From NCBI RefSeq assembly GCF_001997385.1, contig NZ_CP019633.1:2730001-2762000 (forward strand): 32,000 nt of DNA, read 5' to 3'. Below, one piece after another: positions 131 to 32,000 of the stretch. A model generated the notes under the pieces. That model did not search any database and was not told the origin of the DNA. It saw only the letters and a list, made by a program, of their open reading frames with translations. Origin of the DNA: Sedimentisphaera cyanobacteriorum. Lineage in GTDB: Bacteria; Planctomycetota; Phycisphaerae; Sedimentisphaerales; Sedimentisphaeraceae. Each line of letters begins with the position of its first letter. Positions within the stretch are counted from its first letter, which is position 1. A program made the translations under genes and the position numbers.

Positions 131-704
131 ACTTACACCTTTCAACAAAAAGTAACACTTAAAAGCATCCGCAACGCACGAACGCTAATGTTCCTGCTTT
201 GCATCGGGTCTTGCTGAATGAGGTTAAGGAAAGCCATGTAAAAAACTCAAAGAATTCTCAACCTTTGAATAACAATGCTGCCGGCCAATATCTGACGCTG
301 ACAGAAAACTTACAGCTAAGTAGCTTTCCTCATTATAAACTTATTTTTTCGGAGTCAAAGAGAAAATGTAAATTTACGAAAAATTTTAAATAAAGAGCCG
401 TTAATATATTAACATTTTTAATGAGCTGAAAACTTGTTAATTTCTGACGAGCGATAATAAAACATTTAATATGTCAGAAAAGATTAATTGGGGGAAACGC
501 TGTTCCCTGCAAGACGCTGAAGAGCATCTCAGTTCTTTGAAAATACCTTTTTTAATAATATTCTGAACAAAAAAAGGTGTGCATGCTTTTGATTTTTAAA
601 AAAATGTCAAAGTGCCGGCCTGTCTAAACATTACCTTACTATAAGACCCTGCGAGAAGTTATCGCTTGGTTGTGTAAATTGTATTACTTTTAAAGAGGTT
701 TATT

Positions 705-2828
705 ATGAGAAAATTATTATTTGTTTTAGCGTTAGCTGCCTTGCCGGCGGCAGCTTTTGCCTTTGCAGGCATAAATGAGCTAATTACTCACAACGGCTTT
801 GAAGAGCCCTACATTGAGGGCGGCGGTGTATGGGTAGATATCGTGGGCTGGGAAGACAAAAATGTTAATGGCCCGCTTGATTCCAAGCTTAACGATGACA
901 CGATTCCGGGAGCCGAGTTCGACAATCAGGTGCTTAGGCTTAAGCCTAATTTCTACACCTCTCAAGCCACTGGCGCCAGCTGGAAAGCTGGAGACCAGCT
1001 TCTGCTGAGCTTTAACGGTATTGAAGCCCGCTGGAAAGCTGGCAGTCTTGGCAATGAGTTCGATGCGCTTATTGTGGATACGGCAAACTTCGATCAGGTA
1101 ACTGGTAATGGAATTTTGTGGAGTGAGCGAGTAAACCTTGACGGCGCAAATGATAAAGTATCCAATGCACCGGACTGGCTTGATAAGCAGACTTTCTCTT
1201 ATAAGATTGACACCACCCAGTTCCCGCAGGAATATGAGGGGGGAGAGCTTACCCTAAGGTTAGAGGCAATTGGCGGCATTTGTCAGGTTGACAATTTTTC
1301 ATTAGGTTTCACAGGCCAAGCCTACGGCGGTTCTTACCAGCAGCAGCCGGGAACAACCGGCATTGATGTTGACCTTAGCTGGATGGCCGGCACGGATTAT
1401 ATGAACCCGGGTTCGGGAAATGATGTAAATCCGGCAATAGTCGATCAGTACGTTTATGTATCAAACGCGCCAGACGCAGAGCCGAATTTTGTAGGCGCTG
1501 TTGGTGCAGACCCGGGGCAGGTTCCCGAAAGCACCTATCAGGTTACAGGTCTGGGATACGACACTGAATACCAGTGGCAGATTGTTGAGGTTCTCGATAC
1601 CGCGGTTGACCCGCTGCCTGACATAGGCGACGGGGTAAACGAGCTGCAGAACGCTTCTGTACCGGAGGCTTACATCCCGAGCGAAAAGTGGAGCTTTGTT
1701 ACTATGAGCGATGAGCCTGTATTTGAATCAATTTCTTCCAGCCCAGACTTCCCTGCAGCGGGAGATGATGTTACTGTATCGGCGGTTATTGAAAGCGCGT
1801 CTTCTGTGCTGGCTTCTGATATAAACTGGAGCTTTGGCGGGGTGCCGATTTCAGAATCTACATTTACAGACAATCAGGACGGGACATACACCACTTCTAT
1901 AACAGTTGAAGATGTTTCTCTTGCTGATTCAGGTGAATACACTTGCTCAATAACAGGATTCTCACAGATAAGCAAAGCGCTTAATATCAAGAGGATGCTC
2001 GCACACTGGAAAATGGACAATGACCCTGCCAACTGGGACGGAACTTACCTGCTCGACGTATGTATGGAAGACCCGGTCGCATACAATGCAGACCCGAACG
2101 ACTATTTCAGCTTTGTTGACGGAGCCATCCCGGCCCAGACTAATCAGGGCATTACATGGAACGGACAAGTTGGCGGTGCTGATGTGCCCGGGCTTAATCC
2201 GCTTTCAGAAGAAGGCGATATGACTATTACCGGATGGGTTTACTACGAAGGAAACACTAACGGCTGGGGCGTAGTTGCAGCTCAGAAAATAAGTAATGAT
2301 GTAGGAGACTACTGGAGAATCGCTGTACAGCCAACAAGAGAACTGAGTGTTGGAGGACCTGGCGGGTCTGCAGTCAGCAGCGGAACATTGCCGCTGGATG
2401 ATTGGTGCTTTATAGCTGCTGTTTACGACAGCACCGAAAGCGGTATAGAGTGTTCAGCTTATATTATCCCCACTGACGGGTCTGAAATGAGCGTAGATAC
2501 AGACAGTGGCGGTGTAGGCGATGTTGAAGAAACTCCTGTTTTCTCTATTGGAAGAACTTCCAATGCTTATGAAACGCCTGCTAATATGTTCGGCAAGATA
2601 GATGATATGAGGGTGTTCAATTATGCTCTCAGCGAAGAAGAGATTGCACAGCAGTTCTACGATGCTTCAAATAATATCATCTGCGATCCTGACAGCGCAA
2701 ATCCAAATGATGTTGCCGGCCCTGATGGGCTCGGCCCAGACTGCAGCGTGGATATGTATGATTTCGCAGCAATGGCTGAAAGCTGGCTGAACTGCTCGCT
2801 TGTCCCTGCAGAAGTCTGCGATATGTAA
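705..2828 (+). CDS. Secreted multidomain non-catalytic binding protein: CBM-like beta-sandwich, FN3/Ig-like region, LamG (Laminin_G_3-like) and C-terminal dockerin-like repeat
   Basis: ATG 705 is preceded by AGAGG (694-698). Signal peptide MRKLLFVLALAALPAAAFA. The N-terminal block runs from NGFEEP to QVDNFSL, typical of the edges of CBM4/9-like jelly rolls. There is an Ig I-set-like GEYTCSITG motif. The LamG-like block reads MTITGWVYYEG ... DDWCFIAAVYD ... GKIDDMRVFNYALSEEEI. The C-terminal tail is GPDCSVDMYDFAAMAESWL. I recognised no catalytic motif. Confidence 0.85.
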   Translation: MRKLLFVLALAALPAAAFAFAGINELITHNGFEEPYIEGGGVWVDIVGWEDKNVNGPLDSKLNDDTIPGAEFDNQVLRLKPNFYTSQATGASWKAGDQLLLSFNGIEARWKAGSLGNEFDALIVDTANFDQVTGNGILWSERVNLDGANDKVSNAPDWLDKQTFSYKIDTTQFPQEYEGGELTLRLEAIGGICQVDNFSLGFTGQAYGGSYQQQPGTTGIDVDLSWMAGTDYMNPGSGNDVNPAIVDQYVYVSNAPDAEPNFVGAVGADPGQVPESTYQVTGLGYDTEYQWQIVEVLDTAVDPLPDIGDGVNELQNASVPEAYIPSEKWSFVTMSDEPVFESISSSPDFPAAGDDVTVSAVIESASSVLASDINWSFGGVPISESTFTDNQDGTYTTSITVEDVSLADSGEYTCSITGFSQISKALNIKRMLAHWKMDNDPANWDGTYLLDVCMEDPVAYNADPNDYFSFVDGAIPAQTNQGITWNGQVGGADVPGLNPLSEEGDMTITGWVYYEGNTNGWGVVAAQKISNDVGDYWRIAVQPTRELSVGGPGGSAVSSGTLPLDDWCFIAAVYDSTESGIECSAYIIPTDGSEMSVDTDSGGVGDVEETPVFSIGRTSNAYETPANMFGKIDDMRVFNYALSEEEIAQQFYDASNNIICDPDSANPNDVAGPDGLGPDCSVDMYDFAAMAESWLNCSLVPAEVCDM

Positions 2829-2890
2829 TTACTTGGCTCAAAAGAGCATAATTTGAGATTACTTTTTTAATTTTTACACGAGGTTTAACT

Positions 2891-5014
2891 ATGAAACGAT
2901 TATTTTTAATATTAATTTTAACTGCATTGCCCGCAGCAGTTTTTGCCTTTGCACCAAATAATGAACTCATAACACACAACGGTTTTGAGGAGCCATTCGT
3001 CGATGGCGGCGGTGTATGGGTAGATATCGTAGGCTGGGATGATAAAAACGGCACAGGCCCGCTTGACTCCAAGCTTAACGATGACAAGATCCCAGGCGCC
3101 GAGTACGACAATCAGGTGCTTAGGCTTAAGCCTAATTTCTTTACATCCCAAGACACAGGCGCATCCTGGCAGTACGGAGATCAGCTTGTGCTGAGCTTTA
3201 ACGGGATTGAAGCCCGCTGGAAAGCTGGCAGTCTTGGCAATGAGTTCGATGCGCTTATCGTGGACACAGAAAACTACGATCTGGTAACAGGAGACGGAAC
3301 TCTATGGAGCCAGAGAATGAACCTTGACGGCGCAAATGATAAAGTCTCCAATGCACCGGACTGGCTTGATAAGCAGACTTTCTCCTACAAGATTGACACC
3401 ACCCAGTTCCCTCAGGAATATGAAGGCGGAGAGCTTACTCTGAGACTGCAGGCAATCGGCGGTATTTGTCAGGTTGATAATTTTTCATTGTCTCTAACAG
3501 GCGCGGCCTACGGCGGTTCATCTACTCAGCAGCCGGGCGCAACCGGCATCGATGTTGACCTGAACTGGATGGCCGGCACGGATTATATGAATCCTGGCTC
3601 AGGCAATGATGTAAATCCGGCAATCGTCGATCAGTACGTTTATGTATCAAATGCGCCAGGCGCAGAGCCGAATTTTGTAGGCGCTGTCGGTGCAGCCCCG
3701 GGACAGGTTGCTGAAAGCACCTATCAGGCTGCAGGCCTCGGCTATGACACTGAATATGAGTGGCAGATTGTTGAGGTTCTCGATACCGCGGTTGACCCGC
3801 TGCCTGAGATAGGCGACGGGGTAAACGAGCTGCAGAACGCTTCTGTACCGGAGGCTTACATCCCGAGCGAAAAGTGGAGCTTTGTTACTATGAGCGATGA
3901 GCCTGTATTTGAATCAATTTCTTCCAGCCCAGACTTCCCTGCAGCGGGAGATGATGTTACTGTATCGGCGGTTATTGAAAGCGCGTCTTCTGTGCTGGCT
4001 TCTGATATAAACTGGAGCTTTGGCGGGATGCCGATTTCAGAATCTACGTTTACAGACAATCAGGACGGAACATACACTACTTCAATAACAGTTGAAGATT
4101 TTTCTTCTGCTGATGCAGGCGAATACACCTGTTCAATTACAGGATTCTCTCAGATAAGCAAAGCGCTCAATATCAAGAGGATGCTCGCACACTGGAAGAT
4201 GGACAGCGACCCTGCAAACTGGGACGGAACTTACCTGCTCGATGTGGGCACCGAAGACCCGTTCGCATACAATGCAGACCCGAACGACTATTTCAGCTTT
4301 GTTGACGGGGCAATCCCGAGCAAGACTAATCAGAGCGTTACGTGGGACGGCGCTGTAGGCGGTGCTGATGTACCCGGTCTTAATCCGCTTTCAGAAGAAG
4401 GCGATATGACTATCACAGCGTGGGTTTACTACGAAGGAAAAACCAACGGCTGGGGTGTTATTGCAGCTCAGAAAGAGAATAATGAAGACAAGAACTACTG
4501 GAGAATCGCTGTTCAGCCAGACGACAGAATCTTGGTTGTCGGCGGAGACAACGGCTCTGTTTATGGAAGCGGGGTATTGCCGCTTGAGGACTGGTGCTTT
4601 ATAGCAGCTGTTTACGACAGCACAGAAAGCGGTCTTGAGTGCTCTGCTTATGTAATCCCGACTGATGGTTCGGATATCACTGCTGATACAGGCAGTGCCG
4701 GACTTGGCGATATAGCAGAACAGCCGATCTTCTCTATCGGAAGAAATTCTCAGCCGGCAGACCCATCAAATATGTTCGGCAGAATAGATGATATGAGGGT
4801 GTTCAATTATGCTCTCAGCGAAGAAGAGATTGCCGAGCAGTTCTACGACGCATCGGAAGTTCCAATTTGCATTACAGCAAATGCAAGCCCGGGCGATGTT
4901 GCTGGGCCTGATGGAACCGGACCGGACTGCCGAGTGGATATGTATGATTTTGCATCAATGGCGCAAAGCTGGCTTGATTCCACGATTCTTCCGTCTCAAG
5001 CAGGCGATATGTAA
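2891..5014 (+). CDS. Tandem paralog of 705-2828 (same CBM-like/Ig/LamG/dockerin-like architecture, also 707 aa)
   Basis: ATG 2891 is preceded by GAGG. Signal peptide MKRLFLILILTALPAAVFA. It is collinear with the upstream gene at a 2186-nt offset, and most residues look identical by eye. Tail is GPDCRVDMYDFASMAQSWL. Confidence 0.85.
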   Translation: MKRLFLILILTALPAAVFAFAPNNELITHNGFEEPFVDGGGVWVDIVGWDDKNGTGPLDSKLNDDKIPGAEYDNQVLRLKPNFFTSQDTGASWQYGDQLVLSFNGIEARWKAGSLGNEFDALIVDTENYDLVTGDGTLWSQRMNLDGANDKVSNAPDWLDKQTFSYKIDTTQFPQEYEGGELTLRLQAIGGICQVDNFSLSLTGAAYGGSSTQQPGATGIDVDLNWMAGTDYMNPGSGNDVNPAIVDQYVYVSNAPGAEPNFVGAVGAAPGQVAESTYQAAGLGYDTEYEWQIVEVLDTAVDPLPEIGDGVNELQNASVPEAYIPSEKWSFVTMSDEPVFESISSSPDFPAAGDDVTVSAVIESASSVLASDINWSFGGMPISESTFTDNQDGTYTTSITVEDFSSADAGEYTCSITGFSQISKALNIKRMLAHWKMDSDPANWDGTYLLDVGTEDPFAYNADPNDYFSFVDGAIPSKTNQSVTWDGAVGGADVPGLNPLSEEGDMTITAWVYYEGKTNGWGVIAAQKENNEDKNYWRIAVQPDDRILVVGGDNGSVYGSGVLPLEDWCFIAAVYDSTESGLECSAYVIPTDGSDITADTGSAGLGDIAEQPIFSIGRNSQPADPSNMFGRIDDMRVFNYALSEEEIAEQFYDASEVPICITANASPGDVAGPDGTGPDCRVDMYDFASMAQSWLDSTILPSQAGDM

Positions 5015-5030
5015 TCTTTAAAACTACAGG

Positions 5031-5057
5031 GGCGGGCACCTGCCCGCCTCTTCTTTT
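5031..5057 (+). terminator. Rho-independent terminator after the second LamG paralog
   Basis: GGCGGGC (5031-5037), loop ACCT, GCCCGCC (5042-5048), followed by TCTTCTTTT. It lies 17 nt after the stop codon at 5012-5014. Confidence 0.75.
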
Positions 5058-5106
5058 ACTGCAAAATTAACTTTCATTTTAAAAGATTTACCGGAAAATT
5101 ATCTTT

Positions 5107-5640
5107 ATGAATAAAGATTCTCAAACAGAAGACTTCGTTAATCTGCTGCTCAATTCACAGGGTAGGATTTATGCGTATATCCTCAGCCTTGTCGGAAATC
5201 ACGACGATGCTGAGGATATAATGCAGGATGCAGTTTCTGTAATGTGGCAGAAGTTCGACAGCTTCGAGAAAGGAACTAGCTTTATCGCATGGGCATTTAC
5301 GATATCTAAGTATCAGGTGCTCAATTTCAGGAGAACAAAGGCTCGCCACTCTGAGAATCTATTTGCCGACAATGTTTTCGAATTAATTGCAGAGCAGGCC
5401 GAAACTGAAAGCTGCGATAATGAAAAAATGGAATGTTTGGGCGAATGCGTGGCGAATTTAAAAGAAAACCATTTCAATATACTGAAAATGAAATACTTTT
5501 ACGGTCTTTCCGTAAGAGAGATAGGATCAAGAGTCGGGCTCGGCAAAACAGCGGTTTACAAAAGACTTTCGAGGCTTCATGCTTTTCTGAGAGACTGCGT
5601 TAAGAGGAGATTGAAGGCGAGGGGCAGGATAGATGGATAA
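5107..5640 (+). CDS. ECF-type RNA polymerase sigma-70 family factor
   Basis: 177 aa. Region 2-like sequence DAEDIMQDAVSVMWQKFDSFEKGTSFIAWAFTISKYQVLNFRR. Region 4 HTH-like sequence LSVREIGSRVGLGKTAVYKRLSRLHAFLRDC. It resembles the expanded Rhodopirellula/Verrucomicrobium ECF group; the group assignment is from memory. Confidence 0.9.
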   Translation: MNKDSQTEDFVNLLLNSQGRIYAYILSLVGNHDDAEDIMQDAVSVMWQKFDSFEKGTSFIAWAFTISKYQVLNFRRTKARHSENLFADNVFELIAEQAETESCDNEKMECLGECVANLKENHFNILKMKYFYGLSVREIGSRVGLGKTAVYKRLSRLHAFLRDCVKRRLKARGRIDG

Positions 5641-7306
5641 GAAAACTTCAATAGAATTAAATTTCCTGCTTGCCGGCGGCATGGAAGGCGGGCTTACTGA
5701 TGAGCAGCGAAGCAGACTCAATGAGCTTTTAGAGAGAACCCAAGAATCAAGGAGCTATGCACTTGAGATATACAGGATATCAGCAGGACTTAAAAAATCA
5801 GCCAAGGCTGCTGAAGCCTTCAGCCAAAGAGAGAGCCCGGAAGATTTTACGCAGAGATTTATACTCGATAATTCAATAGGCAGCCCCGAGCTTTTAAGGC
5901 TTGGAAAAAAAGAGCAGGATAAGCCCGAAGAAACCGAGCCGGATATTTGCGAGTGTGCCGAGCAGAAGAGAAAAGTGAGTATGCCCAATCTTATTTTAGC
6001 GGCAAGCTCAGCAGCAGCCCTTATCTTCCTTCTTCTATGGGCAAACCTCGCCCCGGGAAGATTGCCCTCCGAGCAGGTGGGTGTGTTGAGCGAGGCTATG
6101 GACACAAGCTGGGCAGAGAAAGCTGAAGTGTTAAATGTTGGTGATGATGTCTTTACAAACTCTGCTGCAATCGCGCTGGATGAAGGCTTTATTGAGATAG
6201 AATTGAACAGCGGAGTAAGCTTTACAGCAGAAGGCCCGGCTTCGTTTGAAGTGATTTCTGACGACCAGATTGAGCTTAGCTACGGCGAGTTATATGTTAC
6301 TGTTCCTAATCAGGCTGTGGGGTTTCAGGTAACAACGGAGAACTCCAAAATTATTGATCTGGGCACTGAATTCGGTGTATCTCAGGAGATTTCCGGCGAT
6401 ACAGAGGTGCATGTAACAAAGGGGAAAACGAGTTTTGTAACAAGGAAATTTGTAAGTACAAACCACATTAATATTAACGAAAAAACAGCGTATTGTTTTG
6501 ATGTTTCAACAAAAAAAATCCTGGAGGTTAATTTCCGGGAAAACAAATTTGTTAGGGAATTTGATACCGATAAGCGAATTGTATGGAGGGGCGGGCCTAT
6601 AAAGCTCGCTGATATCGTTGCAGGCGGGAACGGAATGAATAATCTGAACGTTAAAAGAGAAGCCATCAGCCCGGGTACTGGCAAGGTTTCTCAGAGTCTG
6701 CTTTTGCGGAACTACGTCAAGGAAAGCATTGAACTAAAAAAAACCCATTTCGCTTTTCATCCGGTAGAGTCTAATCCTTTTGTGGATGGCGTTTTTGTGC
6801 CTAAAGGCGGCGAAGAAACCTGTACTGTAAACAGCAAGGGGCATATCTTCCAAGAATGCCCGCCTACAGACGGCAGATACTGGACTTACATTTGCAATAT
6901 ACAATCTTATAATTTAGATTTTCAGGGATGGAAAAAACAACGGGAGCTGAATAATTTCAGAAGGGCTTCCAGACATGCCGGAATTTTTATCCATCCAAAC
7001 GCCGGCATAACTTTCGACTTGAATAAATTCAGGGAAATAACCGAAGCCGAAAAATTCACTTTCAAATTCAGCACGCTTATCTCAAGCTCCGACAAAACAG
7101 ATAACGGCAAAGCGGATTTTTGGGTGCTTACAGACGGCGAGCTTCGATACAAGAGGTTAAAAGCTACAGCTGAAATGGGCGTTGAAAATGAACAGATACA
7201 TATCGATTCAGACACTGACTTTCTCACTCTCGTAACAACCGGCGGCGGCAACGGCAACGGAAATGACAGGTGCATATTTGAAGAGCCTGTTCTGATTGCT
7301 GAATAG
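5633..7306 (+). CDS. FecR-type transmembrane anti-sigma factor with a long unassigned C-terminal extracytoplasmic domain
   Basis: The start ATG 5633 overlaps the sigma stop codon by 8 nt (ATGGATAA), suggesting translational coupling. One predicted TM helix, PNLILAASSAAALIFLLLWANL. FecR-like beta region GELYVTVPNQAVGFQVTTENSKIIDLGTEFGV. About 250 further residues have no motif I can assign. Confidence 0.8.
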   Translation: MDKKTSIELNFLLAGGMEGGLTDEQRSRLNELLERTQESRSYALEIYRISAGLKKSAKAAEAFSQRESPEDFTQRFILDNSIGSPELLRLGKKEQDKPEETEPDICECAEQKRKVSMPNLILAASSAAALIFLLLWANLAPGRLPSEQVGVLSEAMDTSWAEKAEVLNVGDDVFTNSAAIALDEGFIEIELNSGVSFTAEGPASFEVISDDQIELSYGELYVTVPNQAVGFQVTTENSKIIDLGTEFGVSQEISGDTEVHVTKGKTSFVTRKFVSTNHININEKTAYCFDVSTKKILEVNFRENKFVREFDTDKRIVWRGGPIKLADIVAGGNGMNNLNVKREAISPGTGKVSQSLLLRNYVKESIELKKTHFAFHPVESNPFVDGVFVPKGGEETCTVNSKGHIFQECPPTDGRYWTYICNIQSYNLDFQGWKKQRELNNFRRASRHAGIFIHPNAGITFDLNKFREITEAEKFTFKFSTLISSSDKTDNGKADFWVLTDGELRYKRLKATAEMGVENEQIHIDSDTDFLTLVTTGGGNGNGNDRCIFEEPVLIAE

Positions 7307-7326
7307 TTTTTGAAAATATTTTGACG

Positions 7327-10300
7327 GCAAACTTTGAGAATAATTTTAATGGAGAAAAAAATGAGCAAAACTTTCGCTTTCTATATCTTTACGTTTATAT
7401 TTTGTGCAGCAGCATTTGCAGCTGACGATTCTTGGACATTCGTAGGCTGGGCAGACCCGCATTATGAGGCCGCAGACCTTACGGGCAATAATCCCGCGGG
7501 CACGCCCGCAGCAAAAGGCTATCCCGAAGCCACTGAGGGCTTAAACGGAACAACTGATTTAGTGGAGAAGGATATCTCAGACAGGATCTCCCAGATGGCA
7601 GCTCACAATCCGGAAGCCGTGATTATCCCGGGCGATTTAGGAAGCTACCGTTTCGATGCAGACTGGGCGAAGGCGGCCTTTGCTCCGGGCGGAACTTATG
7701 AAGAGACTGTTCAAAACGCTGCGGATATCTACAACGGCCAATGGTACTACCGCTTTGCCTCCCAGATGCCCATGGTGCTTATGGCTGTAGGCGACCATGA
7801 GGTTGGCGATAACAATTGGGATGTCGGAAAGCCGATTTCTCATCTTGTTGATGAGTTCAGGCTGTCCTTAGCTCAGGCTTTCAATATGGATAATTCGGGA
7901 AGTTTCCGCTTTGACGACCCGATTGGCTCAGTAAGCTCACGACCTTTAGGCACGCCATACGAGAACACATCATTCGCCAAACAAGTTCGCAATGCACTGT
8001 TTATTTCTGTGGATGTATTCAGGCAGGACTCCCCGGATAAGAAGCTGAACGTAATTACCGGCTCGGTAACAGCAGATGTAAGCGGGGCTCATTTGAATTG
8101 GCTGCAAAATGTGTTAGTTGCCGCTGATAAAGAACGCACAATTGATCATGTGTTTGTTTTTGCGCATATCCCCGTTCTTGAGCCGGTGAGAAAATGGGCT
8201 TCAAGCGGTATGATGTTTGATAACAGGGATGATTCCGACTTCTGGGCAGCTCTTCGCAGCTCAAGCAAGGTGCGTGCGTATTTTGCCGGCGAAGTTCATA
8301 CGGTAACAGCCTCCAAAGATACCAAAAGCGACATACTCCAAATTGTTCATTCAGGATATATCAAGGCGGATGTTTACGAAGATAAGATAGAGTTCACAAA
8401 CTACAGATTCCAAAGTAAGGACGCCGGCTATACTGAGAAGTATTGGTCTAAGAATAAAGTAGCGTCTTTCAGTAAAAAGGCCGCACCGGAAATTAAGAAC
8501 GGCTCTATCACTGCTGATTATTCAAGAGACAAAGCAAGCTTCAGTTCTTCAGGAATATTTGAATTGATGGATCAGAAAGGCCTGTTGGTTCATTACAGCT
8601 TTGATGATGACTCTGAATCAAAAATAACAAACCACGGCTCAATGAAAACAGAATTTTACGGCGGAGTAAGAATGGGTTCGGGCTTCGGCGAAGGAGCTAT
8701 GGGCAAAGCAGGAACATTCGACGGTAAAGATGATTACATTACCAGCAAAAGAGGCATTTCTCCTGTAACAGGCTCTGAGCCTAGAACTGTCTCAGCTTGG
8801 ATAAAAACAAAAAGCTCTGAGAAAATGACAATAGCCGGCTGGGGCGGAGCTAAATGGGGAATTCTCGGAAAGTTCAATTTCGATTTAATTGACGGTAAAA
8901 TCGGGCTCTCTGCAGAAGGCACTCAGACACGGGCAGAAGGCTGCCCTAATCTTGCAGACGGGAAGTGGCATCATGTTGCTGCGGCTTTCCCCGGAAGACC
9001 CGCGGGAAAAGACAAATTGAAGGATTTGATATTTTTCGCTGACGGGCAGAAATATAAGCCAGAAACCAGCTCCGAAGATGTGATAATGACTAATTCGAGC
9101 GTTAATAATTTATATGTGGGCAGGGGAGCTCGAAATCGCGGCCCAAATTTCAAAGGCAGTATAGACGAGTTTGCTATTTGGGGCTCTCAGCTCAGTGACG
9201 GCAAGATTAAATCACTTTTTGCAGCTGCGAAAAATGAAAAACTCAATTACAATGCCTCCCAGATGGAAAAGCTGTTTGATTTGTACAATAAGCAATCAGG
9301 CTCAGCAGTTATTAAAGGCAGAAGGTGGCAGTGCATCTCCGGTCTTTCAGGTGCCCAGGGCGATTTGGTAATCCATAACGGCTCGCCGGCATTGATTTTC
9401 AATCAGCAGGGCAGAGGCGTCTTGGGTCTGTAATTTATAGCTATCCCCTTTCGGAGAACGCTAATCCAGCAAACTTTGAGATTTTACACGGAAGATAAAA
9501 TGAAAAAAAATTTCGGTTTTTTAATTTTAATGTTTACATTTTGTTTATCAGCATCAGCTGCAGATTCTTGGACATTCGTAGGCTGGGCAGACCCGCATTA
9601 TGAGGCCGCAGACCTTACTGGCAATAATCCCGCGGGCACGCCCGCAGCAGAAGGCTACCCAGATGCCACTGAGGGCTACAACGGAACAACTGATTTAGTG
9701 GAGCAGCATATCGCAGACAGGATCTCTCAGATGGCAGCTCAAAACCCCGAGCTGTTAATTGTTGCGGGAGACCTCGCTAGCTACCGCTTTGATGCAGACT
9801 GGGCGAGAAATGCGTTTGCTCCGAACGGTACTTATGAAGATACTATAATAAATGCTGGCGAGATTTACAATAATCAGTGGTATTACCGCTTTGCCTCGCA
9901 GATCCCGCTTGTGCTTGCAGCTGTGGGCGATCATGAAATAGGTGATAACAATTGGGGTGTTGGAAAGTCGATATCCTATCTGGTAGATGATTTCAGGCTC
10001 TCTTTCGCTCAGGCATTCAATATAGATGATTCGGGAATTTTCCGCTTTGACGACCCGATTGGCTCGGTAAACTCACGCCCAATAGGCACGCCATACCAGA
10101 ACACTTCGTACGCCAAGCAGGTTCGCAATGCCCTGTTTATCTCAGTAGATGTATTCAGGCAGGACTCACCGGATAAGCAGCTCAGTATTCTCTCCGGCTC
10201 GGTAACAGCGGATGTAAGCGGGGCTCATTTGAACTGGTTTCAGAATGTTCTTAATGCTGCACAGAACGACAGCACAATAGATCACGTGTTTGTTTTCGGT

Positions 10301-11572
10301 CATACGCCAATACTTGAGCCTGTGAGAAAGCATGCTTCCAGCGGGATGATGTTCGATAACAGAGAAGATTCAGATTTCTGGGCAGCTATGCGCAGCTCAA
10401 GCAAGGTGCGCGCTTATTTTGCCGGCGAGGTGCATACGGAAACCGCCTCTATAGATGCCCAGAGCGGTATCCTTCAAATCGTACATAAGGGCTATCTCAA
10501 GGCTGATGTTTATGAAGATAAGGTTGAGTTCACAAACTACAGATTCCAAAACACCGGCGCAGGCTATACTGAAAAGTACTGGAGCAGAAATTCTATAGCC
10601 TCTTTCAATAAGGTTGCATCTCCCGAAGTGATGAATGGTTCATTAATTGCCGACTATTCAGGCGTTTATCCGGAATTCAATGATTCAGGTATATTAGAAC
10701 TGGTCGATCGGAAAGGCCTTGTTGTTCATTACAGCTTTGAAGATGAATTTTCATCACGAATAATAAACCACGGCTCGCTCAAAACAGAATTCTACGGCGG
10801 GGTTAAAATGGGCTCAGGCTTCGGCGAAGGAGTTTTGGGGAAAGCGGGAACATTCGACGGTGAAGGATACCTTACTACCAAAAACGGGATATCTCCCATT
10901 ACCTGCTCTGAAGCAAGAACTGTATCAGCTTGGATTAAAACTGTAAATTCCGAGCAAATGACAATTGCCGGCTGGGGCGGAGCTAAAGGCGGAGTTCAAG
11001 GGAAGTTCAATTTTGATTTAGTCAACGGGGAAATCGGGCTTTCCGGAGAAAATTCCCAAACTCGAGCAGCAGGTTCGCCAAACCTTGCAGACGGCAAATG
11101 GCATCATGCAGCAGTTGCTTTCCCCGGGCGAAGCGCAGGCAAGGAAAAACTCAAAGACCTTATATTCTTCGTTGACGGCCAGAGGTATCCCGCAGAGTCT
11201 AACTCTGATGATCTTCTGGTAACTGATCCGGGATCTAATAGGCTTTACGTAGGCAGAGCTGCAAGAGATCACGGGCCAAATTTCGAAGGCAGTATAGATG
11301 ATTTTGCGATATGGGGCTCTCAGCTGAGCGATGCAAAGATTAAATCTCTATCGCATGCAGGCGAAAGCGAAACCCTCGGCTACAATGCTTCCCAGATGGA
11401 AAAGCTTTTCGATTTGTTCAACAGAAAATCCGGTTCGGTATTTATCAAAGGCAGAAGGTGGCAGTGCGTATCCGGTCTTTCAGGTGCACCGGGCGAACTT
11501 GTAACCAGCAGCGGCGAGCCTGCATTCGTTTTCGACCAGCAGGGCAACGGTGTTTTGGGCGAGATTACTGAT
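7327..11572. repeat. Tandem duplication of the metallophosphoesterase-LamG gene plus a short leader (offset about 2137-2142 bp)
   Basis: The proteins are collinear over about 690 aa. The leader motif GCAAACTTTGAGA is shared (7327-7339 and 9469-9481). The tract 7427-7513 vs 9564-9650 is near-identical, with one mismatch by my reading. Confidence 0.85.
7361..9433 (+). CDS. Secreted calcineurin-like metallophosphoesterase fused to a LamG domain
   Basis: I prefer ATG 7361 (GGAG at 7351-7354) over the track's TTG 7334. Signal peptide MSKTFAFYIFTFIFCAAAFAA. Phosphoesterase motifs appear in order: WADPHY (DxH), IPGDLGSY (GD), AVGDHEVGDNNW (GNHE-like), VFVFAHIPV, YFAGEVHT (GHxH-like). The LamG-like block reads RTVSAWIKTKSS ... 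GKWHHVAAAF ... GSIDEFAIWGSQLSD. Confidence 0.8.
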   Translation: MSKTFAFYIFTFIFCAAAFAADDSWTFVGWADPHYEAADLTGNNPAGTPAAKGYPEATEGLNGTTDLVEKDISDRISQMAAHNPEAVIIPGDLGSYRFDADWAKAAFAPGGTYEETVQNAADIYNGQWYYRFASQMPMVLMAVGDHEVGDNNWDVGKPISHLVDEFRLSLAQAFNMDNSGSFRFDDPIGSVSSRPLGTPYENTSFAKQVRNALFISVDVFRQDSPDKKLNVITGSVTADVSGAHLNWLQNVLVAADKERTIDHVFVFAHIPVLEPVRKWASSGMMFDNRDDSDFWAALRSSSKVRAYFAGEVHTVTASKDTKSDILQIVHSGYIKADVYEDKIEFTNYRFQSKDAGYTEKYWSKNKVASFSKKAAPEIKNGSITADYSRDKASFSSSGIFELMDQKGLLVHYSFDDDSESKITNHGSMKTEFYGGVRMGSGFGEGAMGKAGTFDGKDDYITSKRGISPVTGSEPRTVSAWIKTKSSEKMTIAGWGGAKWGILGKFNFDLIDGKIGLSAEGTQTRAEGCPNLADGKWHHVAAAFPGRPAGKDKLKDLIFFADGQKYKPETSSEDVIMTNSSVNNLYVGRGARNRGPNFKGSIDEFAIWGSQLSDGKIKSLFAAAKNEKLNYNASQMEKLFDLYNKQSGSAVIKGRRWQCISGLSGAQGDLVIHNGSPALIFNQQGRGVLGL

Positions 11573-12646
11573 ATGATTACAATCCTCCAGCAGCCTGAAA
11601 ACACAGCCGGAATTGAGGGCAAAGAGATTTCTCTAAGCGTTTCAGCTTCTGGTGCTGAGCCGATTGAATATCAGTGGTTCCATACGCAAGACAGCACTCC
11701 CTCGCAGGATGATACAGCGAAAGGCTCAGGCAGCGCTCTTGAGCTTAGCTTGAATGAACAGACTGAAGGCTATTACTACTGCAAACTTCAAAATCCCGAA
11801 GGCACAGCTTACACGAATACAGTAAGCGTGCGGCTGACGCATAAAATGGCTCACTGGACTCTCGATAATGATTCTGCCGGCTTCGATGGCAGCAGTTATC
11901 TGGATATCAGCTCATACGGCGAAAAAAGAGACGCCCTTGTAGAAGGCAGTTCTGAATTTGCAGATGGTGCATGCCCACAGCTCGGCCAGAGCGCTTTAAT
12001 CCAGAGAAACGATGGATACGCTTATGCCGGCGGCTGGAACCCGCTTGAGACAACCGGCAAATTTACAATGACACTATGGCTCAAGTGGAAGCAGAACCTC
12101 GGCAACTGGCAGGTGGTAACAGGGAAGAAGGATACCGACGGCGAGCTCTTCAGGCTTTCAATCAAGCCCGATGAATCTCTTCTCAATCTCGGAAAATCCA
12201 GCGGGGCTAAGGTGTTTGCGCCCGGGCCTCTGCCTGAGGGAGAATGGGTGTTTGCGGCATTCTCTATAGACTCGACAACTTCTCAGTCCACAGGTTCAAT
12301 TTATATGATAACTGAAGATGAAGGGCTCAGGAAGAGCTATTCTGAAACTTCGCTCGGCGAAAAAACAGACGCTGCTTTTGGAGTGGGCTCTGTGAAGGCC
12401 TCTTCAAGCTTTAACGGCTGGCTCGATGATGTTAGGGTTTATGATGCTGTTTTAGACGAAGAGGATATAACGACGATTTACTACCAGTCCTGCGGCAAGA
12501 CCGTATGCAATCCAGGTTCATTAAGCTTCGATACATCCGGCCCCAACGGGGAGCCGGATTGTGTCGTTAACTTATACGACTTTGCCAGCCTCTGCTTCAG
12601 CTGGATGGAATGCACCCTTCTGCCTGCTCATGAATGCATCGAATAG
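9500..12646 (+). CDS. Paralog of 7361-9433 (metallophosphoesterase-LamG) extended by an Ig-like, second LamG and dockerin-like cassette
   Basis: I prefer ATG 9500 (MKKNFGFLILMFTFCLSASAA) over the track's TTG 9476. The same five phosphoesterase motifs are present (AVGDHEIGDNNW, VFVFGHTPI, YFAGEVHT). First LamG: RTVSAWIKTVNS ... GSIDDFAIWGSQLSD. Then an Ig I-set-like EGYYYCKLQN motif and a second LamG (FTMTLWLKW ... GEWVFAAFSID ... GWLDDVRVYDAVLDEEDI). Tail is GEPDCVVNLYDFASLCFSWM. Confidence 0.85.
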   Translation: MKKNFGFLILMFTFCLSASAADSWTFVGWADPHYEAADLTGNNPAGTPAAEGYPDATEGYNGTTDLVEQHIADRISQMAAQNPELLIVAGDLASYRFDADWARNAFAPNGTYEDTIINAGEIYNNQWYYRFASQIPLVLAAVGDHEIGDNNWGVGKSISYLVDDFRLSFAQAFNIDDSGIFRFDDPIGSVNSRPIGTPYQNTSYAKQVRNALFISVDVFRQDSPDKQLSILSGSVTADVSGAHLNWFQNVLNAAQNDSTIDHVFVFGHTPILEPVRKHASSGMMFDNREDSDFWAAMRSSSKVRAYFAGEVHTETASIDAQSGILQIVHKGYLKADVYEDKVEFTNYRFQNTGAGYTEKYWSRNSIASFNKVASPEVMNGSLIADYSGVYPEFNDSGILELVDRKGLVVHYSFEDEFSSRIINHGSLKTEFYGGVKMGSGFGEGVLGKAGTFDGEGYLTTKNGISPITCSEARTVSAWIKTVNSEQMTIAGWGGAKGGVQGKFNFDLVNGEIGLSGENSQTRAAGSPNLADGKWHHAAVAFPGRSAGKEKLKDLIFFVDGQRYPAESNSDDLLVTDPGSNRLYVGRAARDHGPNFEGSIDDFAIWGSQLSDAKIKSLSHAGESETLGYNASQMEKLFDLFNRKSGSVFIKGRRWQCVSGLSGAPGELVTSSGEPAFVFDQQGNGVLGEITDMITILQQPENTAGIEGKEISLSVSASGAEPIEYQWFHTQDSTPSQDDTAKGSGSALELSLNEQTEGYYYCKLQNPEGTAYTNTVSVRLTHKMAHWTLDNDSAGFDGSSYLDISSYGEKRDALVEGSSEFADGACPQLGQSALIQRNDGYAYAGGWNPLETTGKFTMTLWLKWKQNLGNWQVVTGKKDTDGELFRLSIKPDESLLNLGKSSGAKVFAPGPLPEGEWVFAAFSIDSTTSQSTGSIYMITEDEGLRKSYSETSLGEKTDAAFGVGSVKASSSFNGWLDDVRVYDAVLDEEDITTIYYQSCGKTVCNPGSLSFDTSGPNGEPDCVVNLYDFASLCFSWMECTLLPAHECIE

Positions 12647-12662
12647 CTGAATCGCTCTACAT

Positions 12663-13589
12663 CTAATCAGCCCAAAGCCATTCATCTGCGAATTTCGCTA
12701 GATCCTTTATCCCAACTTCATTATCGTTATTGAAATCCTGCCGTTTTCTGTGCTCAATTGTAAACACCAGATCCCCGCCGGCAGACCCGTCATTATCTCC
12801 ATCCATTGGGTTGCCGGTCTGCTTGCTTGTTACTGTATCTGGTACAGTAATTGTGTACTCATCACCAAGCAGCGCCTCGGAAAATGTGATTATCATAAAT
12901 CTGCTCCCGCTGCCGGTGGTTTGCGAGGAAATACTGACCTCGTCTTCGTTTTCAACAGATGCCTCATCAGCCCCAAAGATAATCGGTTCGTTGAAGAGCA
13001 GACGAACAGAGCCCACGCCGCTTTCGTTTGTGTGTACGCCGTTAACTGCCGCCTTAGGATTTCTCATAAGAAGCTGAGGCCCCAAAACTGCTGGCTCTGA
13101 GGCTGTGATAATCCTTGCATAATCTCCCGGCGTACTTGCCCCAAGGTCGAATGATACTGTATAGCTCTCATCAATCACTGCTGAATCCCCGCTTTCAAGC
13201 CCCCGCATATACGGGTTAAGGTAGTTTGTTCCGGGGAGGCCGAGAAAATCGCTTGCGTTGAGCTTCTCCGTATCGTAAATCAGCCCGGCCACCAGCTCAT
13301 CAGTTACAACAGTGCCCGCTATCCTGGATTGGTCTTCAGGGTCGTAGATGATGTAATGGCTGCTCACAGTTGCTCCGGACGGAATTACAGAGGCGGGAAA
13401 GTCCAGCTCAAGGTCGCTTTGCAGTGTAGCATGCTGGCGTTCGTTGAAGCCGAGAAGCTCATCAACCTGATGATTGTCCTCGCCTGTATTCAGCGGCGGG
13501 CTTATCACTGTAACCGACCCGCCAACGATTTCTGAAAAACACTGAGCTGCGGCAAGGAGCAGTAATGCTGTAAATAGTAAACTTTTCAT
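12663..13589 (-). CDS. Secreted protein of unknown function with an Ig-like region and a C-terminal dockerin-like repeat
   Basis: I prefer ATG at 13589 (MKSLLFTALLLLAAAQCFSE signal peptide); the track starts at a TTG two codons upstream. Its C-terminal third reads GNPMDGDNDGSAGGDLVFT and then DFNNDNEVGIKDLAKFADEWLWAD. It is convergent with 9500-12646, with only 16 nt between the stop codons. Confidence 0.7.
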   Translation of the reverse strand: MKSLLFTALLLLAAAQCFSEIVGGSVTVISPPLNTGEDNHQVDELLGFNERQHATLQSDLELDFPASVIPSGATVSSHYIIYDPEDQSRIAGTVVTDELVAGLIYDTEKLNASDFLGLPGTNYLNPYMRGLESGDSAVIDESYTVSFDLGASTPGDYARIITASEPAVLGPQLLMRNPKAAVNGVHTNESGVGSVRLLFNEPIIFGADEASVENEDEVSISSQTTGSGSRFMIITFSEALLGDEYTITVPDTVTSKQTGNPMDGDNDGSAGGDLVFTIEHRKRQDFNNDNEVGIKDLAKFADEWLWAD

Positions 13590-13680
13590 AACCAAAAACC
13601 TTTCAAATAACAGCAGTTATAATTTAATCATACCGAATTTTTAGGCAGGATTCCAAGAAAAAAAGCATTTTTTTAAATTT

Positions 13681-14835
13681 TCAGCTCAATTTTTTATTGT
13701 TTTTTCGAAACTGTGCAGGAGTTTCTCCTGTCGCCTTCTTGAAATATCTCGACAAATGATCCGGCTCGCAGAACTCTAAATCGTTCGCTATCTGGTATGC
13801 AGGCAAATCTGTATTCAGCAGTTTATTCTTAATCAGCTCGATTCTAAGTTTACGGATTTCGCTTTTAACAGATTTACTGATGTGTTTTCGGAAGAGCCTT
13901 TCGATTGTTCTCCTTGAGGTGCAGCAATGTTCAGCAACGTCCTGAACGGTTATAGGTTTCTTAAAAATATGTCTGATGTAGATCAGTGCCTTCTGGACAA
14001 TTGGATTCTCAACAGCAAAAACATTTGTTGACTGCCTCTCGATTATCTGCACGGGATTAATATTTATAATTCTCGGATTGACCTTGTTTTCTATAAGCTC
14101 TTCAAGATGCTCGGCAGCCTTAAAGCCGGCATTTTCAAAATTCAGCTCAATGCTTGAAAGAGATGGTGAAGACAGCCTGCATACAAGCTCGTCATTATCC
14201 ACACCGAGAACAGCTGCCTGTTCAGGGACTTCAATACCCGCAATCTTGCATGCCTCAAGAATATACACTGCTCTGTCGTCGTTGCAGGTGAATATCCCAA
14301 CAGGTTTTGGTATATCAGCAAGCCACTTTGCTGTTTCTTTTATTTCTTCGTAAAAAATCTGAAAGTGATGAAATTCTTTTAGTCCGACACTGGTCTGAGC
14401 AATTCCCTTATCAGCTAAGATTTTGCAGAAGCCTTCAAAACGCTTGCCTGACCAAGGCAGATTGGGGAAGCCGCAGTATGCGAAATTGTGAAACCCTTTG
14501 CCAATGAAATATTCTGCAGCAATTCGGCCAACCTCGAATGAATTTACCGCAATTGTAGATTCTCCCTTTGCGTATTCAATTTGAGTATCTAAGATTACCT
14601 TAGGAAGGCTGAATTCTAATAATTCAGATAATCGGGAAGGGTCATAAATAAGCAGGCCGTCAAAATCTATCAGCTCGCTGGATCGACCTAAACCTTTAGC
14701 AGGCGAATTGACATAAGCAGGCGGGTTAGCCAGTACTTGCCAGTCTGAGTAGTTCGAGCAATACCGCTCAACACCGGCAAGAAATTTTCTTCCAGAGGCT
14801 CTCGAAGTGTCTATTTCTATAAGAATCTTTTTCAC
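13681..14835 (-). CDS. XylR-type transcriptional regulator (periplasmic-binding-protein-like sugar sensor domain plus AraC-family HTH)
   Basis: GTG start at 14835. The overall architecture and many blocks resemble E. coli XylR, e.g. GIFTCNDDRAVYILEACKIAGIEVPEQAAVLGVDNDEL ... IIERQST ... the AraC HTH ITVQDVAEHCCTSRRTIERLFRK ... DHLSRYFKKATGETPAQFRK. The ligand is unknown, so I assign no gene symbol. Confidence 0.85.
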   Translation of the reverse strand: MKKILIEIDTSRASGRKFLAGVERYCSNYSDWQVLANPPAYVNSPAKGLGRSSELIDFDGLLIYDPSRLSELLEFSLPKVILDTQIEYAKGESTIAVNSFEVGRIAAEYFIGKGFHNFAYCGFPNLPWSGKRFEGFCKILADKGIAQTSVGLKEFHHFQIFYEEIKETAKWLADIPKPVGIFTCNDDRAVYILEACKIAGIEVPEQAAVLGVDNDELVCRLSSPSLSSIELNFENAGFKAAEHLEELIENKVNPRIININPVQIIERQSTNVFAVENPIVQKALIYIRHIFKKPITVQDVAEHCCTSRRTIERLFRKHISKSVKSEIRKLRIELIKNKLLNTDLPAYQIANDLEFCEPDHLSRYFKKATGETPAQFRKNNKKLS

Positions 14836-16035: not shown

Positions 16036-16058
16036 AAATTTATTTAGGATTACTCAAA

Positions 16059-24265: not shown

Positions 24266-24295
24266 GATAATCTCCTTAATATTCGTTTCAATAAA

Positions 24296-24304
24296 ATATT
24301 ATCA
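24296..24304 (-). promoter_or_regulatory. Candidate extended -10 element (TGaTAATAT) for the downstream sulfatase gene
   Basis: The minus strand reads TGATAATAT about 31 nt upstream of GTG 24265, inside the duplicated and conserved leader. I saw no convincing -35 element. Confidence 0.25.
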
Positions 24305-24447
24305 TAACATTTTTACAAGATTCTGACAAATCAGCAGTTTTAATTTTTTCTGCTTAATACTGCTGTATTCATTTTATACTTTTATGCGTTAAAAAATGAT
24401 TCAGCAGACATTTCGAGGCTAAAAGCTTTGAGTCCTTGAATAATTTT

Positions 24448-31489: not shown

Positions 31490-32000
31490 CTAATATTCAC
31501 TAAGCCACCAATTCGCACCGATTGAGAAGTCTGTGATATCCACTGTCCCGTCTCGGTTGAAATCGGCCTCCGCTGGGGTTTGGCTCAGCCAGTTATAGGC
31601 AATATGTATAAGGTCGTCTCCATCTACGTAGTTATCGAGATTTATATCCACTCGTGATATCTGAACCGGATACCTGCCCGGGCTTAGATGCCAGAGCGTC
31701 CGCCAAGGCCAGTCGGCGTAATTTGAGCGGGTTTTCATCTGCTCGGTAGTTCTCGGGTAAGCAGTGATTCCGGCATTCTCAGCCAGCCCTGCAGAGGGCT
31801 CTTCAGCGCTGCCGGGAGCCATAATGGAGCTGTCCCAGTATGAAGAGCTGATCTGAGCGTTCCTCACAGCCCCTGCCAAAGGCCCCGCATAGTACGAAGC
31901 TTCAAGACCATCTGTTGCAGAGAAGCACAGCGTAAGATCTGCCCCCGAGCTCACCTCTCCAGCAATTCCGCCGGCATACAGAGAGGCGATTATCGTTTCC
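31490..32000 (-). CDS. 3' part of a secreted-protein gene ending in a double dockerin-like repeat (5' end lies beyond the window)
   Basis: The frame stays open upstream of the track's GTG at 31954 through to position 32000; I checked these codons by hand (...ETIIASLYAGGIAGEV-SSGADL...). The C-terminus reads DINLDNYVDGDDLIHIAYNWL ... DFNRDGTVDITDFSIGANWWLSEY. Confidence 0.7.
   Translation of the reverse strand, partial: ETIIASLYAGGIAGEVSSGADLTLCFSATDGLEASYYAGPLAGAVRNAQISSSYWDSSIMAPGSAEEPSAGLAENAGITAYPRTTEQMKTRSNYADWPWRTLWHLSPGRYPVQISRVDINLDNYVDGDDLIHIAYNWLSQTPAEADFNRDGTVDITDFSIGANWWLSEY

Follow-up and report, generated by a model that had tools for sequence, protein, structure and literature searches.

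What signal is read, and which genes are controlled, by a sigma factor encoded within an array of secreted LamG-domain proteins is the question raised by positions 705 to 12,646 of the Sedimentisphaera cyanobacteriorum DNA analyzed here (contig NZ_CP019633.1, positions 2,730,001 to 2,762,000 of the forward strand; this whole stretch of 32,000 nucleotides (nt) is referred to as the window). The block holds six genes on one strand (Table 1): two tandem paralogs (genes 1 and 2, or pair 1), an extracytoplasmic function (ECF) sigma factor gene, the gene for a FecR-family anti-sigma factor, and a second couple of tandem paralogs (genes 5 and 6). The reading that we favor, and hold to be fairly probable, is that the block is an ECF switch that responds to an extracytoplasmic glycan and heads an operon for secreted enzymes tagged with LamG. 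The locus is one copy of a very large family of regulator-plus-LamG cassettes in the bacterial order of S. cyanobacteriorum, an anaerobic planctomycete of the Phycisphaerae, and the gene order, the domain content, the fold assignments and the family-wide coupling of regulator to downstream LamG genes are direct observations. In anoxic sediments and mats, complex and often sulfated polysaccharides are widely degraded by Sedimentisphaerales and other anaerobic Phycisphaerae, and we know of no mechanism described for how these bacteria sense such substrates.

The regulatory pair is readily recognized. The sigma factor matches Sigma70_r2 (47 bits, 2e-12) and Sigma70_r4_2 (30.6 bits, 3e-7), both above the Pfam cutoff, and TIGR02937 of NCBIfam (74.9 bits, cutoff 42.9), and it covers positions 2-158 of the 158 in the TIGR02989 profile (Sig-70_gvs1) with 140.2 bits against a curated cutoff of 124.55. 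On these profile matches the 177-residue protein is an ECF (group 4) sigma factor with regions sigma-2 and sigma-4 only, of the PVC (Rhodopirellula-Verrucomicrobium) subfamily TIGR02989. Its neighbor is 100% identical to an NCBI record for an S. cyanobacteriorum "FecR protein", and exact-sequence lookups of the anti-sigma, of its in-genome paralog P0036 and of P0136 returned no record. Pfam places a FecR domain (PF04773, 29.8 bits, cutoff 24) at residues 210-265 and an NPCBM domain (PF08305, 33 bits, cutoff 23.9) at residues 449-553. The AlphaFold2 (AF2) model, with a mean predicted local distance difference test score (pLDDT) of 80.3, has four N-terminal helices, a helix at 117-139 and beta-rich regions at 148-300 and 450-556, with a partly disordered middle region and a terminal beta-sandwich. 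In Foldseek comparisons the periplasmic part superposes on the Parabacteroides anti-sigma 4m0n over 132 residues (template modeling (TM) score 0.50 by target, root-mean-square deviation (rmsd) 2.8 A), and the C-terminus superposes on the galactose-binding CBM51 structures 2vmh and 2vmg with an rmsd of 1.8 A over 108 residues at 20% identity (2vmh); 2vmh, 2vmg and 2vng all match this domain with a probability of 1.0 and an rmsd of 1.8-2.9 A. The profile of the anti-sigma family matches the CBM51 domain of 7js4 (E 1.5e-7), and residues 8-62 have marginal profile similarity to the RsiW anti-sigma domain (E 0.19). These results identify the protein as a predicted single-pass FecR-family anti-sigma factor ending in a domain like carbohydrate-binding module (CBM) family 51, or NPCBM (residues ~446-557), an end that the preliminary description of this DNA had overlooked and that, with no TonB-dependent partner, we regard as the most informative feature.

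The FecR domain itself offers a plausible output step. The motif DLGTEFG, in which G244-T245 is invariant in an alignment of 35 paralogs, falls within the stretch aligned to FecR profile positions 142-198, the region that contains the G181-T182 self-cleavage site of FecR; both FecR and FoxR are processed by Gly-Thr self-cleavage and then by Prc and RseP (PMC9249621). The invariance of G244-T245 and the analogy with FecR and FoxR lead us to suggest regulated proteolysis as the output. What such proteins usually respond to is missing, however. No match to TonB_dep_Rec, Plug or STN was found in the open reading frames (ORFs) of at least ~150 residues scanned across the window, and none of the three is among the 25 commonest families at positions -2, +1 and +2, counted from the anti-sigma gene, in 77 loci of the family. 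The anti-sigma also has no FecR C-terminal (DUF4974-type) transducer-binding domain, Pfam giving FecR and NPCBM only, and no SusC/SusD-like pair occurs in the window or among the commonest neighbor families.

Evidence that regulator and LamG genes belong together comes from the family at large. An exhaustive search with a hidden Markov model (HMM) places the anti-sigma in a family of 3,578 clusters at 50% identity (E<=1e-30). GTDB species representatives contain at least 586 genomic copies, several to a genome and in some genomes six or more; essentially all of the copies listed are from Sedimentisphaerales, Anaerohalosphaeraceae and other Phycisphaerae, and more than 200 relatives were scored among word-sharing candidates. 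ORFs were called at 83 family loci. A sigma gene for a product of ~180 residues lies directly upstream of the anti-sigma gene in 77/82 of them, and 74/77 of the +1 genes have the same orientation. Pfam assigns Laminin_G_3 to the +1 product in 40/77 loci, Ig_3 in 28, N_methyl (pseudopilin-like) in 15 and PEP-CTERM in 12, and finds Laminin_G_3 at +2 in 21/72 but upstream of sigma in only 6/77. With a custom LamG HMM the figures are 42/78 (54%) at +1, 30% at +2, 21% at +3 and 16% at +4, compared with 23/404 (~6%) upstream; LamG is present within +1 to +3 in 53/77 loci, and the enrichment at +1 over upstream (Fisher p = 1e-22) shows that the arrangement does not arise by chance. These downstream proteins share a chassis of fibronectin type III-like (FN3-like), immunoglobulin-like (Ig), LamG and cysteine-tail (Cys-tail) segments, and their N-terminal ~200 residues are locus-specific. 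Other downstream genes at family loci encode GH97, GH27/36 (Melibiase), GH43 and GH31 glycoside hydrolases (GH), pectate lyase and sulfatase, which argues for control of glycan utilization.

Some loci vary the theme. Where the +1 gene is short (~250-330 residues), its usual product is an N_methyl/DUF1559 protein of the prepilin type (15 loci) or else a PEP-CTERM protein (12 at +1, 13 at +2), the ~700-residue LamG protein then being at +2; the window has no such extra gene. In L002 (ENA contig_9), two sigma/FecR-type cassettes (2820-8346 and 9480-13900) stand back to back with a transposase between them, and one is followed by a gene for a SASA esterase-LamG-Ig-LamG protein, the design of gene 6 with another enzyme.

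ECF/FecR pairs near carbohydrate genes are already known in Bacteroidetes, and CBM-bearing anti-sigma factors in clostridia, and the cassette resembles the polysaccharide utilization locus (PUL) anti-sigma systems of Bacteroides and clostridial RsgI in its logic but is built differently. In common with FecI/FecR/FecA and Pseudomonas FoxI/FoxR/FoxA, the cassette has an ECF sigma gene in one transcription unit, here a predicted one, with the gene for a single-pass anti-sigma or sigma regulator that has a PF04773 domain outside the cytoplasmic membrane and a Gly-Thr in the self-cleavage region of the profile. It differs from these in having no TonB-dependent transducer with a signaling domain, in the ~250-residue extension with a CBM51-like end that replaces the C-terminal partner-binding domain of FecR, in a sigma factor that matches TIGR02989 and not the FecI models, and in neighbors that are glycan-related rather than iron-related. 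The PUL-linked pairs of Bacteroidetes (originally ECF10, now ECF239/240) use SusC-like transducers; they too have FecR-type anti-sigma factors near carbohydrate-utilization clusters and many paralogs per genome (PMC7826278), and the superposition on Parabacteroides 4m0n is a further likeness. However, phylum and sigma subfamily differ, there is no SusC/SusD, the anti-sigma has the CBM51-like end, and the conserved neighbor is a secreted Ig-LamG-Cys-tail protein. SigI/RsgI of Clostridium (Acetivibrio) thermocellum likewise combines a membrane anti-sigma carrying an extracellular CBM-type sensor with multiple paralogs that control secreted glycan-degrading proteins (PMC11557425), and autoproteolysis of the RsgI periplasmic domain is described as part of signaling (PMC11557425; PMC10328401). 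Nonetheless, the proteins are unrelated: the sigma factor here is ECF-type and not SigI, Pfam reports no RsgI N-terminal domain on the anti-sigma, and whereas RsgI sensor modules vary among paralogs, here all paralogs have the same CBM51-like module. That module is alike in fold and profile to the CBM51/NPCBM domains of glycoside hydrolases (such as C. perfringens GH95 and GH98, ZmpB), and at related loci NPCBM is also found on the downstream GH97 and GH27/36 (Melibiase) enzymes; here, however, it sits on a signaling protein rather than an enzyme, and its ligand binding is putative. In the open literature that was searched, which excludes most subscription papers, neither a family of FecR-CBM51 anti-sigma factors nor a link between such factors and Ig-LamG-tail proteins was found described.

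Within the window, the ORF listing agrees with the preliminary description as to the six ORFs and their positions, the two tandem pairs, the 8-nt overlap of sigma and anti-sigma genes and the gaps of 54 and 66 nt that follow; the ECF sigma and FecR-family calls are borne out by the Pfam matches given above, the LamG calls by Laminin_G_3 in all four flanking proteins and the Ig call by Ig/Ig_3 matches in pair 1 and gene 6. The signal peptides it reported are likewise seen in the translations as signal-peptide-like N-termini ending AFA/ASA. The terminator that it placed between gene 2 and sigma is present, and is the sole good plus-strand intrinsic terminator. Since this lone terminator precedes sigma, the block reads as two transcription units, genes 1-2 and sigma/anti-sigma/gene 5/gene 6, the latter being operon-like in its overlap, its short gaps and the lack of an internal terminator. 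The block is not one unit, and pair 1 reads as a separate upstream unit closed by the terminator.

Table 1. Genes and noncoding elements of the block (window coordinates)
Feature	Position	Strand	Description
Gene 1	705-2828	+	707 aa, pair 1 copy A
Gene 2	2891-5014	+	707 aa, pair 1 copy B
Sigma gene	5107-5640	+	177 aa, ECF sigma factor
Anti-sigma gene	5633-7306	+	557 aa, overlaps sigma by 8 nt
Gene 5	7361-9433	+	ATG start; longest ORF from TTG 7334; 54 nt past anti-sigma stop
Gene 6	9500-12646	+	ATG start; longest ORF from TTG 9476; 66 nt past gene 5
Intrinsic terminator	5028-5058	+	10-bp stem (5028-5051), 8 G-C pairs, then T-run; closes pair-1 unit
Candidate promoter/5' leader of gene 1	597-704	+	Within ~570-nt divergent intergenic region (136-704)
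13-mer GCAAACTTTGAGA, copy 1	7327-7339	+	21 nt upstream of gene 5 ATG
13-mer GCAAACTTTGAGA, copy 2	9469-9481	+	18 nt upstream of gene 6 ATG

Genes 5 and 6 (74.4% protein identity over 687 residues, 78.1% DNA identity) are candidate outputs of the switch. Gene 5 encodes a metallophosphoesterase-fold head, a Laminin_G_3 domain (2.7e-15, 57.2 bits) and a C-terminal segment of ~75 residues with no Pfam match at E<=10. Gene 6 joins a similar unit to an Ig-LamG-Cys-tail chassis of the pair-1 kind, with Laminin_G_3 twice (1e-31, 110.5 bits) and Ig_3. Identity between the C-terminal half of gene 6 and the chassis of pair 1 is 33%, and at as many as 49 other family loci the chassis of gene 6 matches proteins encoded downstream. 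The metallophosphoesterase call of the preliminary description has no direct Pfam match behind it, the isolated gene 5 head giving no hit to PF00149 even at E<=10 and no PDB sequence match, but many homologs of the head carry PF00149. Compared with the classical motif set (DxH, GD, GNH[DE], H, GHxH), the residues D32, G91-D92, G144-D145-H146, H269 and G310-E311-x-H313 are invariant in 24 sequences. The AF2 model (pLDDT 82.8) matches the dimetal phosphatase 2nxf, PhoD 2yeq, Lmo2642, GpdQ and purple acid phosphatases in a fold comparison (E 1.5e-9 to 1e-7, TM 0.38-0.50 by query). The label is thus largely right, in that the head is predicted to be a variant metallophosphoesterase-fold domain.

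This head is found in none of the other 82 loci, and among the 83 examined is confined to Sedimentisphaera. The variant metallophosphoesterase-LamG architecture (~600 residues; 7361-8400 and 9500-10540 in the window) also occurs in unrelated bacteria, where the motifs are consistently GDHE and GExH. Three contexts were retrieved for such relatives (L084, L085 and L086), and in 3/3 the gene belongs to a glycan-degradation cluster and adjoins, on the same strand, between one and five sulfatase genes (L084 has five); GH2, GH42, GH43, GH116 and fucose/rhamnose catabolic genes are also among the neighbors. We suggest that the variant metallophosphoesterase-LamG proteins may be an undescribed family of glycan-ester hydrolases. 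The earlier guess that a sulfated or phosphorylated polymer is the signal gains some support from these sulfatases, and from the GH2 gene and two sulfatases with twin-arginine (Tat) signals that the window itself contains.

Pair 1 (82.9% protein identity, 84.8% DNA identity) has the architecture of head (residues ~22-210), FN3-like segment, Ig domain, Laminin_G_3 (2.4e-17 and 2e-17, 63.9 and 64.2 bits in genes 1 and 2, cutoff 27.6) and a C-terminal tail with four cysteines, the Ig domain of gene 1 matching Pfam ig at 5e-6; the FN3-like segment between head and Ig had been overlooked. The two copies diverge most in LamG (77% identity) and in the tail (58%). The chassis (residues ~215-707 of gene 1) resembles downstream proteins at many family loci, whereas the head resembles none. 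Searches with the head (189 residues) found no homolog, no Pfam match at E<=10 and no PDB sequence match, so the CBM-like label once given to it depends on NGFE near the N-terminus and a DNFSL strand at the end, features typical of CBM4/9-type modules; we describe it instead as an orphan beta-rich domain. The dockerin-like label on the tails also fails, since no tail of the window's LamG proteins matches Dockerin (PF00404) at E<=10. Some related tails have a sub-threshold match (E ~0.03) to half of the dockerin profile only, and where a type I dockerin has two tandem calcium-binding repeats, this tail has one loop-helix, with four cysteines. An HMM of the tail finds 171 ORFs across the 83 loci, at the C-terminus in 146/171, enriched at +1 to +4 (p = 7e-22). 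The D-D/E signature said to close the LamG modules, [IL]-D-[DE]-x-[RA]-[VI]-[FWY], is indeed present, but it is the generic last strand of Laminin_G_3 and nothing special to these proteins.

All six genes and their order are conserved in the sister species S. salicampi, as are the neighbors that come next, and the exact block recurs only there. Synteny extends far beyond this genome for the sigma/anti-sigma/LamG class, but the specific series sigma-FecR-phosphoesterase-LamG is otherwise seen only in S. salicampi and is absent from the other 82 loci. Genes 1 and 2 are 87% and 92% identical to their S. salicampi orthologs and the paralogs are 83% and 78% identical, and as orthologs are closer than paralogs, pair 1 was duplicated before the two species separated. 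In genes 5 and 6 the S. salicampi paralogs are 87% identical and the orthologs ~77%. The evolution of pair 1 is mosaic: the head of gene 1 (705-1335, compared with 2891-3520 and with L001 5066-7195) is 86% identical to the paralog and 69% to the S. salicampi ortholog, but identity to that ortholog reaches 94% in the LamG domain and 92% in the tail. We note that these patterns suggest partial gene conversion between tandem copies, both in pair 1 and in S. salicampi genes 5/6. Between the species the sigma factor is 88% identical and the anti-sigma 68.5%, with most of the anti-sigma differences in the linker on the cytoplasmic side and in the middle region, and the terminator at 5028-5058 is conserved.

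Conservation also extends to noncoding sequences. The leader of gene 1 can be aligned with S. salicampi for ~110 nt, including ACCCTGCGAGARGTTATCGCTTGGTTGT, with no alignment farther upstream, and as Rfam gives no match over the whole block at E<=1 the leader is no known riboswitch. A block upstream of sigma, CTTACTGCAAAATWAACTTTCATTTT, is conserved in the alignment of the intergenic regions. The 13-mer GCAAACTTTGAGA is exact at 7327, at 9469 and in both S. salicampi copies, although DNA identity between the genes is no more than ~78%, and is a candidate promoter, leader or processing site. AACTTT was considered as a -35 element for genes 5/6 and rejected because no more than 25 nt separate it from the start codon. 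A search for shared promoters in 76-78 sigma-upstream regions and 76 anti-sigma/+1 spacers, by 6-mer enrichment, Gibbs sampling (width 32) and regular expressions, returned only A/T runs and ribosome-binding sites, and a scan for sigma-70-type promoters gave 25 sites against 17.5 expected, none convincing at gene starts. A GT-rich element like GTGTGAAGTGTG was spotted by eye ~60-100 nt upstream of the +1 gene in a subset of family loci (L003, L008, L010, L054, L076, L083).

These features can be combined into a model in which the TIGR02989 sigma factor would be kept inactive by the single-pass FecR-family anti-sigma, the parts of which would be a four-helix cytoplasmic sigma-binding domain, one membrane helix, an external FecR beta-domain with the invariant Gly-Thr, a linker, and a terminal CBM51-like beta-sandwich replacing the domain by which FecR contacts its TonB-dependent transducer. 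The outer part would perceive an extracytoplasmic glycan, which we infer to be probably a sulfated or otherwise esterified polysaccharide, either directly via the CBM51-like module or through the adjacent secreted LamG proteins. Direct sugar binding is suggested by the CBM51-like end, as in RsgI of cellulosome producers (PMC11557425), and the alternative route fits the conservation of the anti-sigma outer part next to a neighbor with a conserved chassis and a variable head. Perception would lead to FecR-style processing, with Gly-Thr self-cleavage and then site-1/site-2 proteolysis, and the freed sigma factor would drive transcription of the operon in which it is encoded, with the anti-sigma gene and genes 5 and 6, and probably also of the separately terminated pair 1. 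The products, secreted proteins in which exchangeable heads are mounted on a common Ig-LamG-Cys-tail chassis, would bind the extracellular polymer or act on it. In this best explanation we infer the identity of the ligand, the cascade of proteolysis, the extent of the regulon and the activity of the enzymes.

Several observations weigh against a glycan switch of this form. Sugar binding by the CBM51-like domain is putative. Mean pairwise identity among the 35 anti-sigma paralogs is 41% in FecR, 36% in the middle region and 37% in the CBM51-like domain, compared with 23% in the cytoplasmic domain, and such conservation of the outer part is unexpected if the CBM51-like domain alone set ligand specificity across hundreds of paralogs beside differing enzymes; the variable sigma-binding domain is consistent with insulation among many co-resident sigma/anti-sigma pairs. 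In the gene 5 head, two metal motifs depart from the classical set by N-to-D (GDHE for GNH[DE]) and H-to-E (GExH for GHxH) substitutions. Pair 1 lies upstream of sigma behind a terminator, at a position occupied by LamG in ~9% of family loci, so that its link to the regulon rests on architecture and on synteny in two sister species. Finally, no ECF-type promoter is recognizable, with k-mer enrichment and Gibbs sampling finding no motif shared by 78 sigma-upstream regions, and the 13-mer is too near the start codons of genes 5/6 to be a -35 element.

The conservation of the outer part raises the possibility that the Ig-LamG-Cys-tail proteins are not, or not only, outputs but are ligand receivers with a role like that of FecA or SusC. 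The head would bind or process the polymer, the chassis would contact the outer part of the anti-sigma, with the CBM51-like end as a protein- or glycan-bridged docking site, and specificity would sit in the partner protein rather than in the anti-sigma. That anti-sigma outer regions (36-41%) are more conserved than the sigma-binding domain (23%) is as expected from such a role, as are neighbors built of a conserved chassis and a head unmatched at other loci, their very tight positional coupling at +1 or +2 on the same strand, and the lack, among scanned ORFs and the commonest neighbor families, of a TonB-dependent transducer to fill the receiver role; FecR-family proteins also get their signal from a partner protein and not from the ligand (PMC9249621). 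However, co-duplication of neighbors would yield the same conservation pattern, 24/77 loci have no LamG within +1 to +3, some (L004) have only glycoside hydrolases downstream, and the CBM51 fold, in the Foldseek targets, binds carbohydrate wherever it has been studied. On balance we regard this alternative as unlikely. A still broader proposal is that the cassette is a TonB-independent form of cell-surface signaling that serves as the main glycan-sensing device of anaerobic Phycisphaerae: a FecR-CBM51 anti-sigma, with paralogs in the thousands, would take its signal from an Ig-LamG-Cys-tail protein that is secreted but kept at the cell surface, and the LamG proteins would be modular co-receptors whose exchangeable heads set the ligand. 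This strikes us as slightly less likely still; if it is true, the variant metallophosphoesterase-LamG head, found beside sulfatases in unrelated bacteria, would represent an undescribed class of glycan-ester hydrolase.

A different question is where the functional unit ends. It could consist of sigma, anti-sigma, gene 5 and gene 6 alone, with pair 1 an independent unit brought alongside by frequent tandem duplication and rearrangement. The strong conserved terminator between pair 1 and sigma is consistent with this, and pair 1 has its own conserved upstream region with no clear motif in common with the region upstream of sigma; LamG occurs upstream of sigma in only 7/78 (-2) and 6/70 (-3) loci, and of the three tandem pairs in the window, which have diverged to a similar degree, one consists of unrelated sulfatases. 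But the ~700-residue head-FN3-Ig-LamG-tail architecture of pair 1 is exactly that typical of family +1 genes, its chassis is common to gene 6 (33% identity), and the arrangement is older than the divergence of the two species and has persisted in both; we consider independence of pair 1 somewhat unlikely. ECF sigma factors often respond to envelope stress, and the presence of a FecR domain would also suit iron or siderophore signaling of the FecIRA type, the LamG genes in either case being bystanders. This we hold to be highly improbable, since the scanned ORFs of the window include no TonB-dependent receptor, Plug or STN, the anti-sigma has the CBM51-like end instead of a DUF4974-type domain, the neighbors are glycoside hydrolases, sulfatases and LamG proteins, and the enrichment of LamG downstream means that these are not bystanders; FecIRA-type iron signaling is rejected on the lack of a transducer and the glycan-related context.

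With the glycan-responsive switch as the favored reading, the locus provides a compact example, from cultured strains, of a regulator family of ~3,600 clusters at 50% identity, with several copies in each genome, that is positionally locked to secreted LamG proteins and carbohydrate-active enzymes. If these sigma/anti-sigma pairs are glycan switches, they would supply a regulator-to-regulon map for predicting substrate use, and anti-sigma polysaccharide sensing would have been built independently a third time, after the SusC-coupled systems of Bacteroides and clostridial RsgI. A new enzyme activity in sulfated-glycan breakdown may also be represented by the variant phosphoesterase-LamG proteins.

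The remainder of the window has features of its own. Its three tandem pairs (705-5014, 7361-12646 and 22322-26391) have DNA identities of 84.8%, 78.1% and 80.6% respectively, the third, on the minus strand, comprising tandem Tat-signal sulfatases of 647 residues with 81% protein identity. At 31490-31954 on the minus strand, a 154-residue ORF gives a near-threshold match to Dockerin_1 (21.8 bits, cutoff 22.9), so that dockerin-type modules may exist in the genome even though the tails of the LamG proteins fail. A convergent gene at 12663-13595 (minus strand), 17 nt from the stop of gene 6 and conserved in S. salicampi, encodes a secreted protein of 310 residues with a near-threshold Big_5 domain and a dockerin-like DFNNDNEVGIKDLAKFADEWL tail. 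Next to it, at 13681-14835 on the minus strand, is a second regulator, with a periplasmic-binding-protein-like domain and an AraC-type helix-turn-helix, and divergent from this regulator (14947-18986, plus strand) is a URO-D-family gene overlapping the GH2 gene, an arrangement that also follows the block in S. salicampi.

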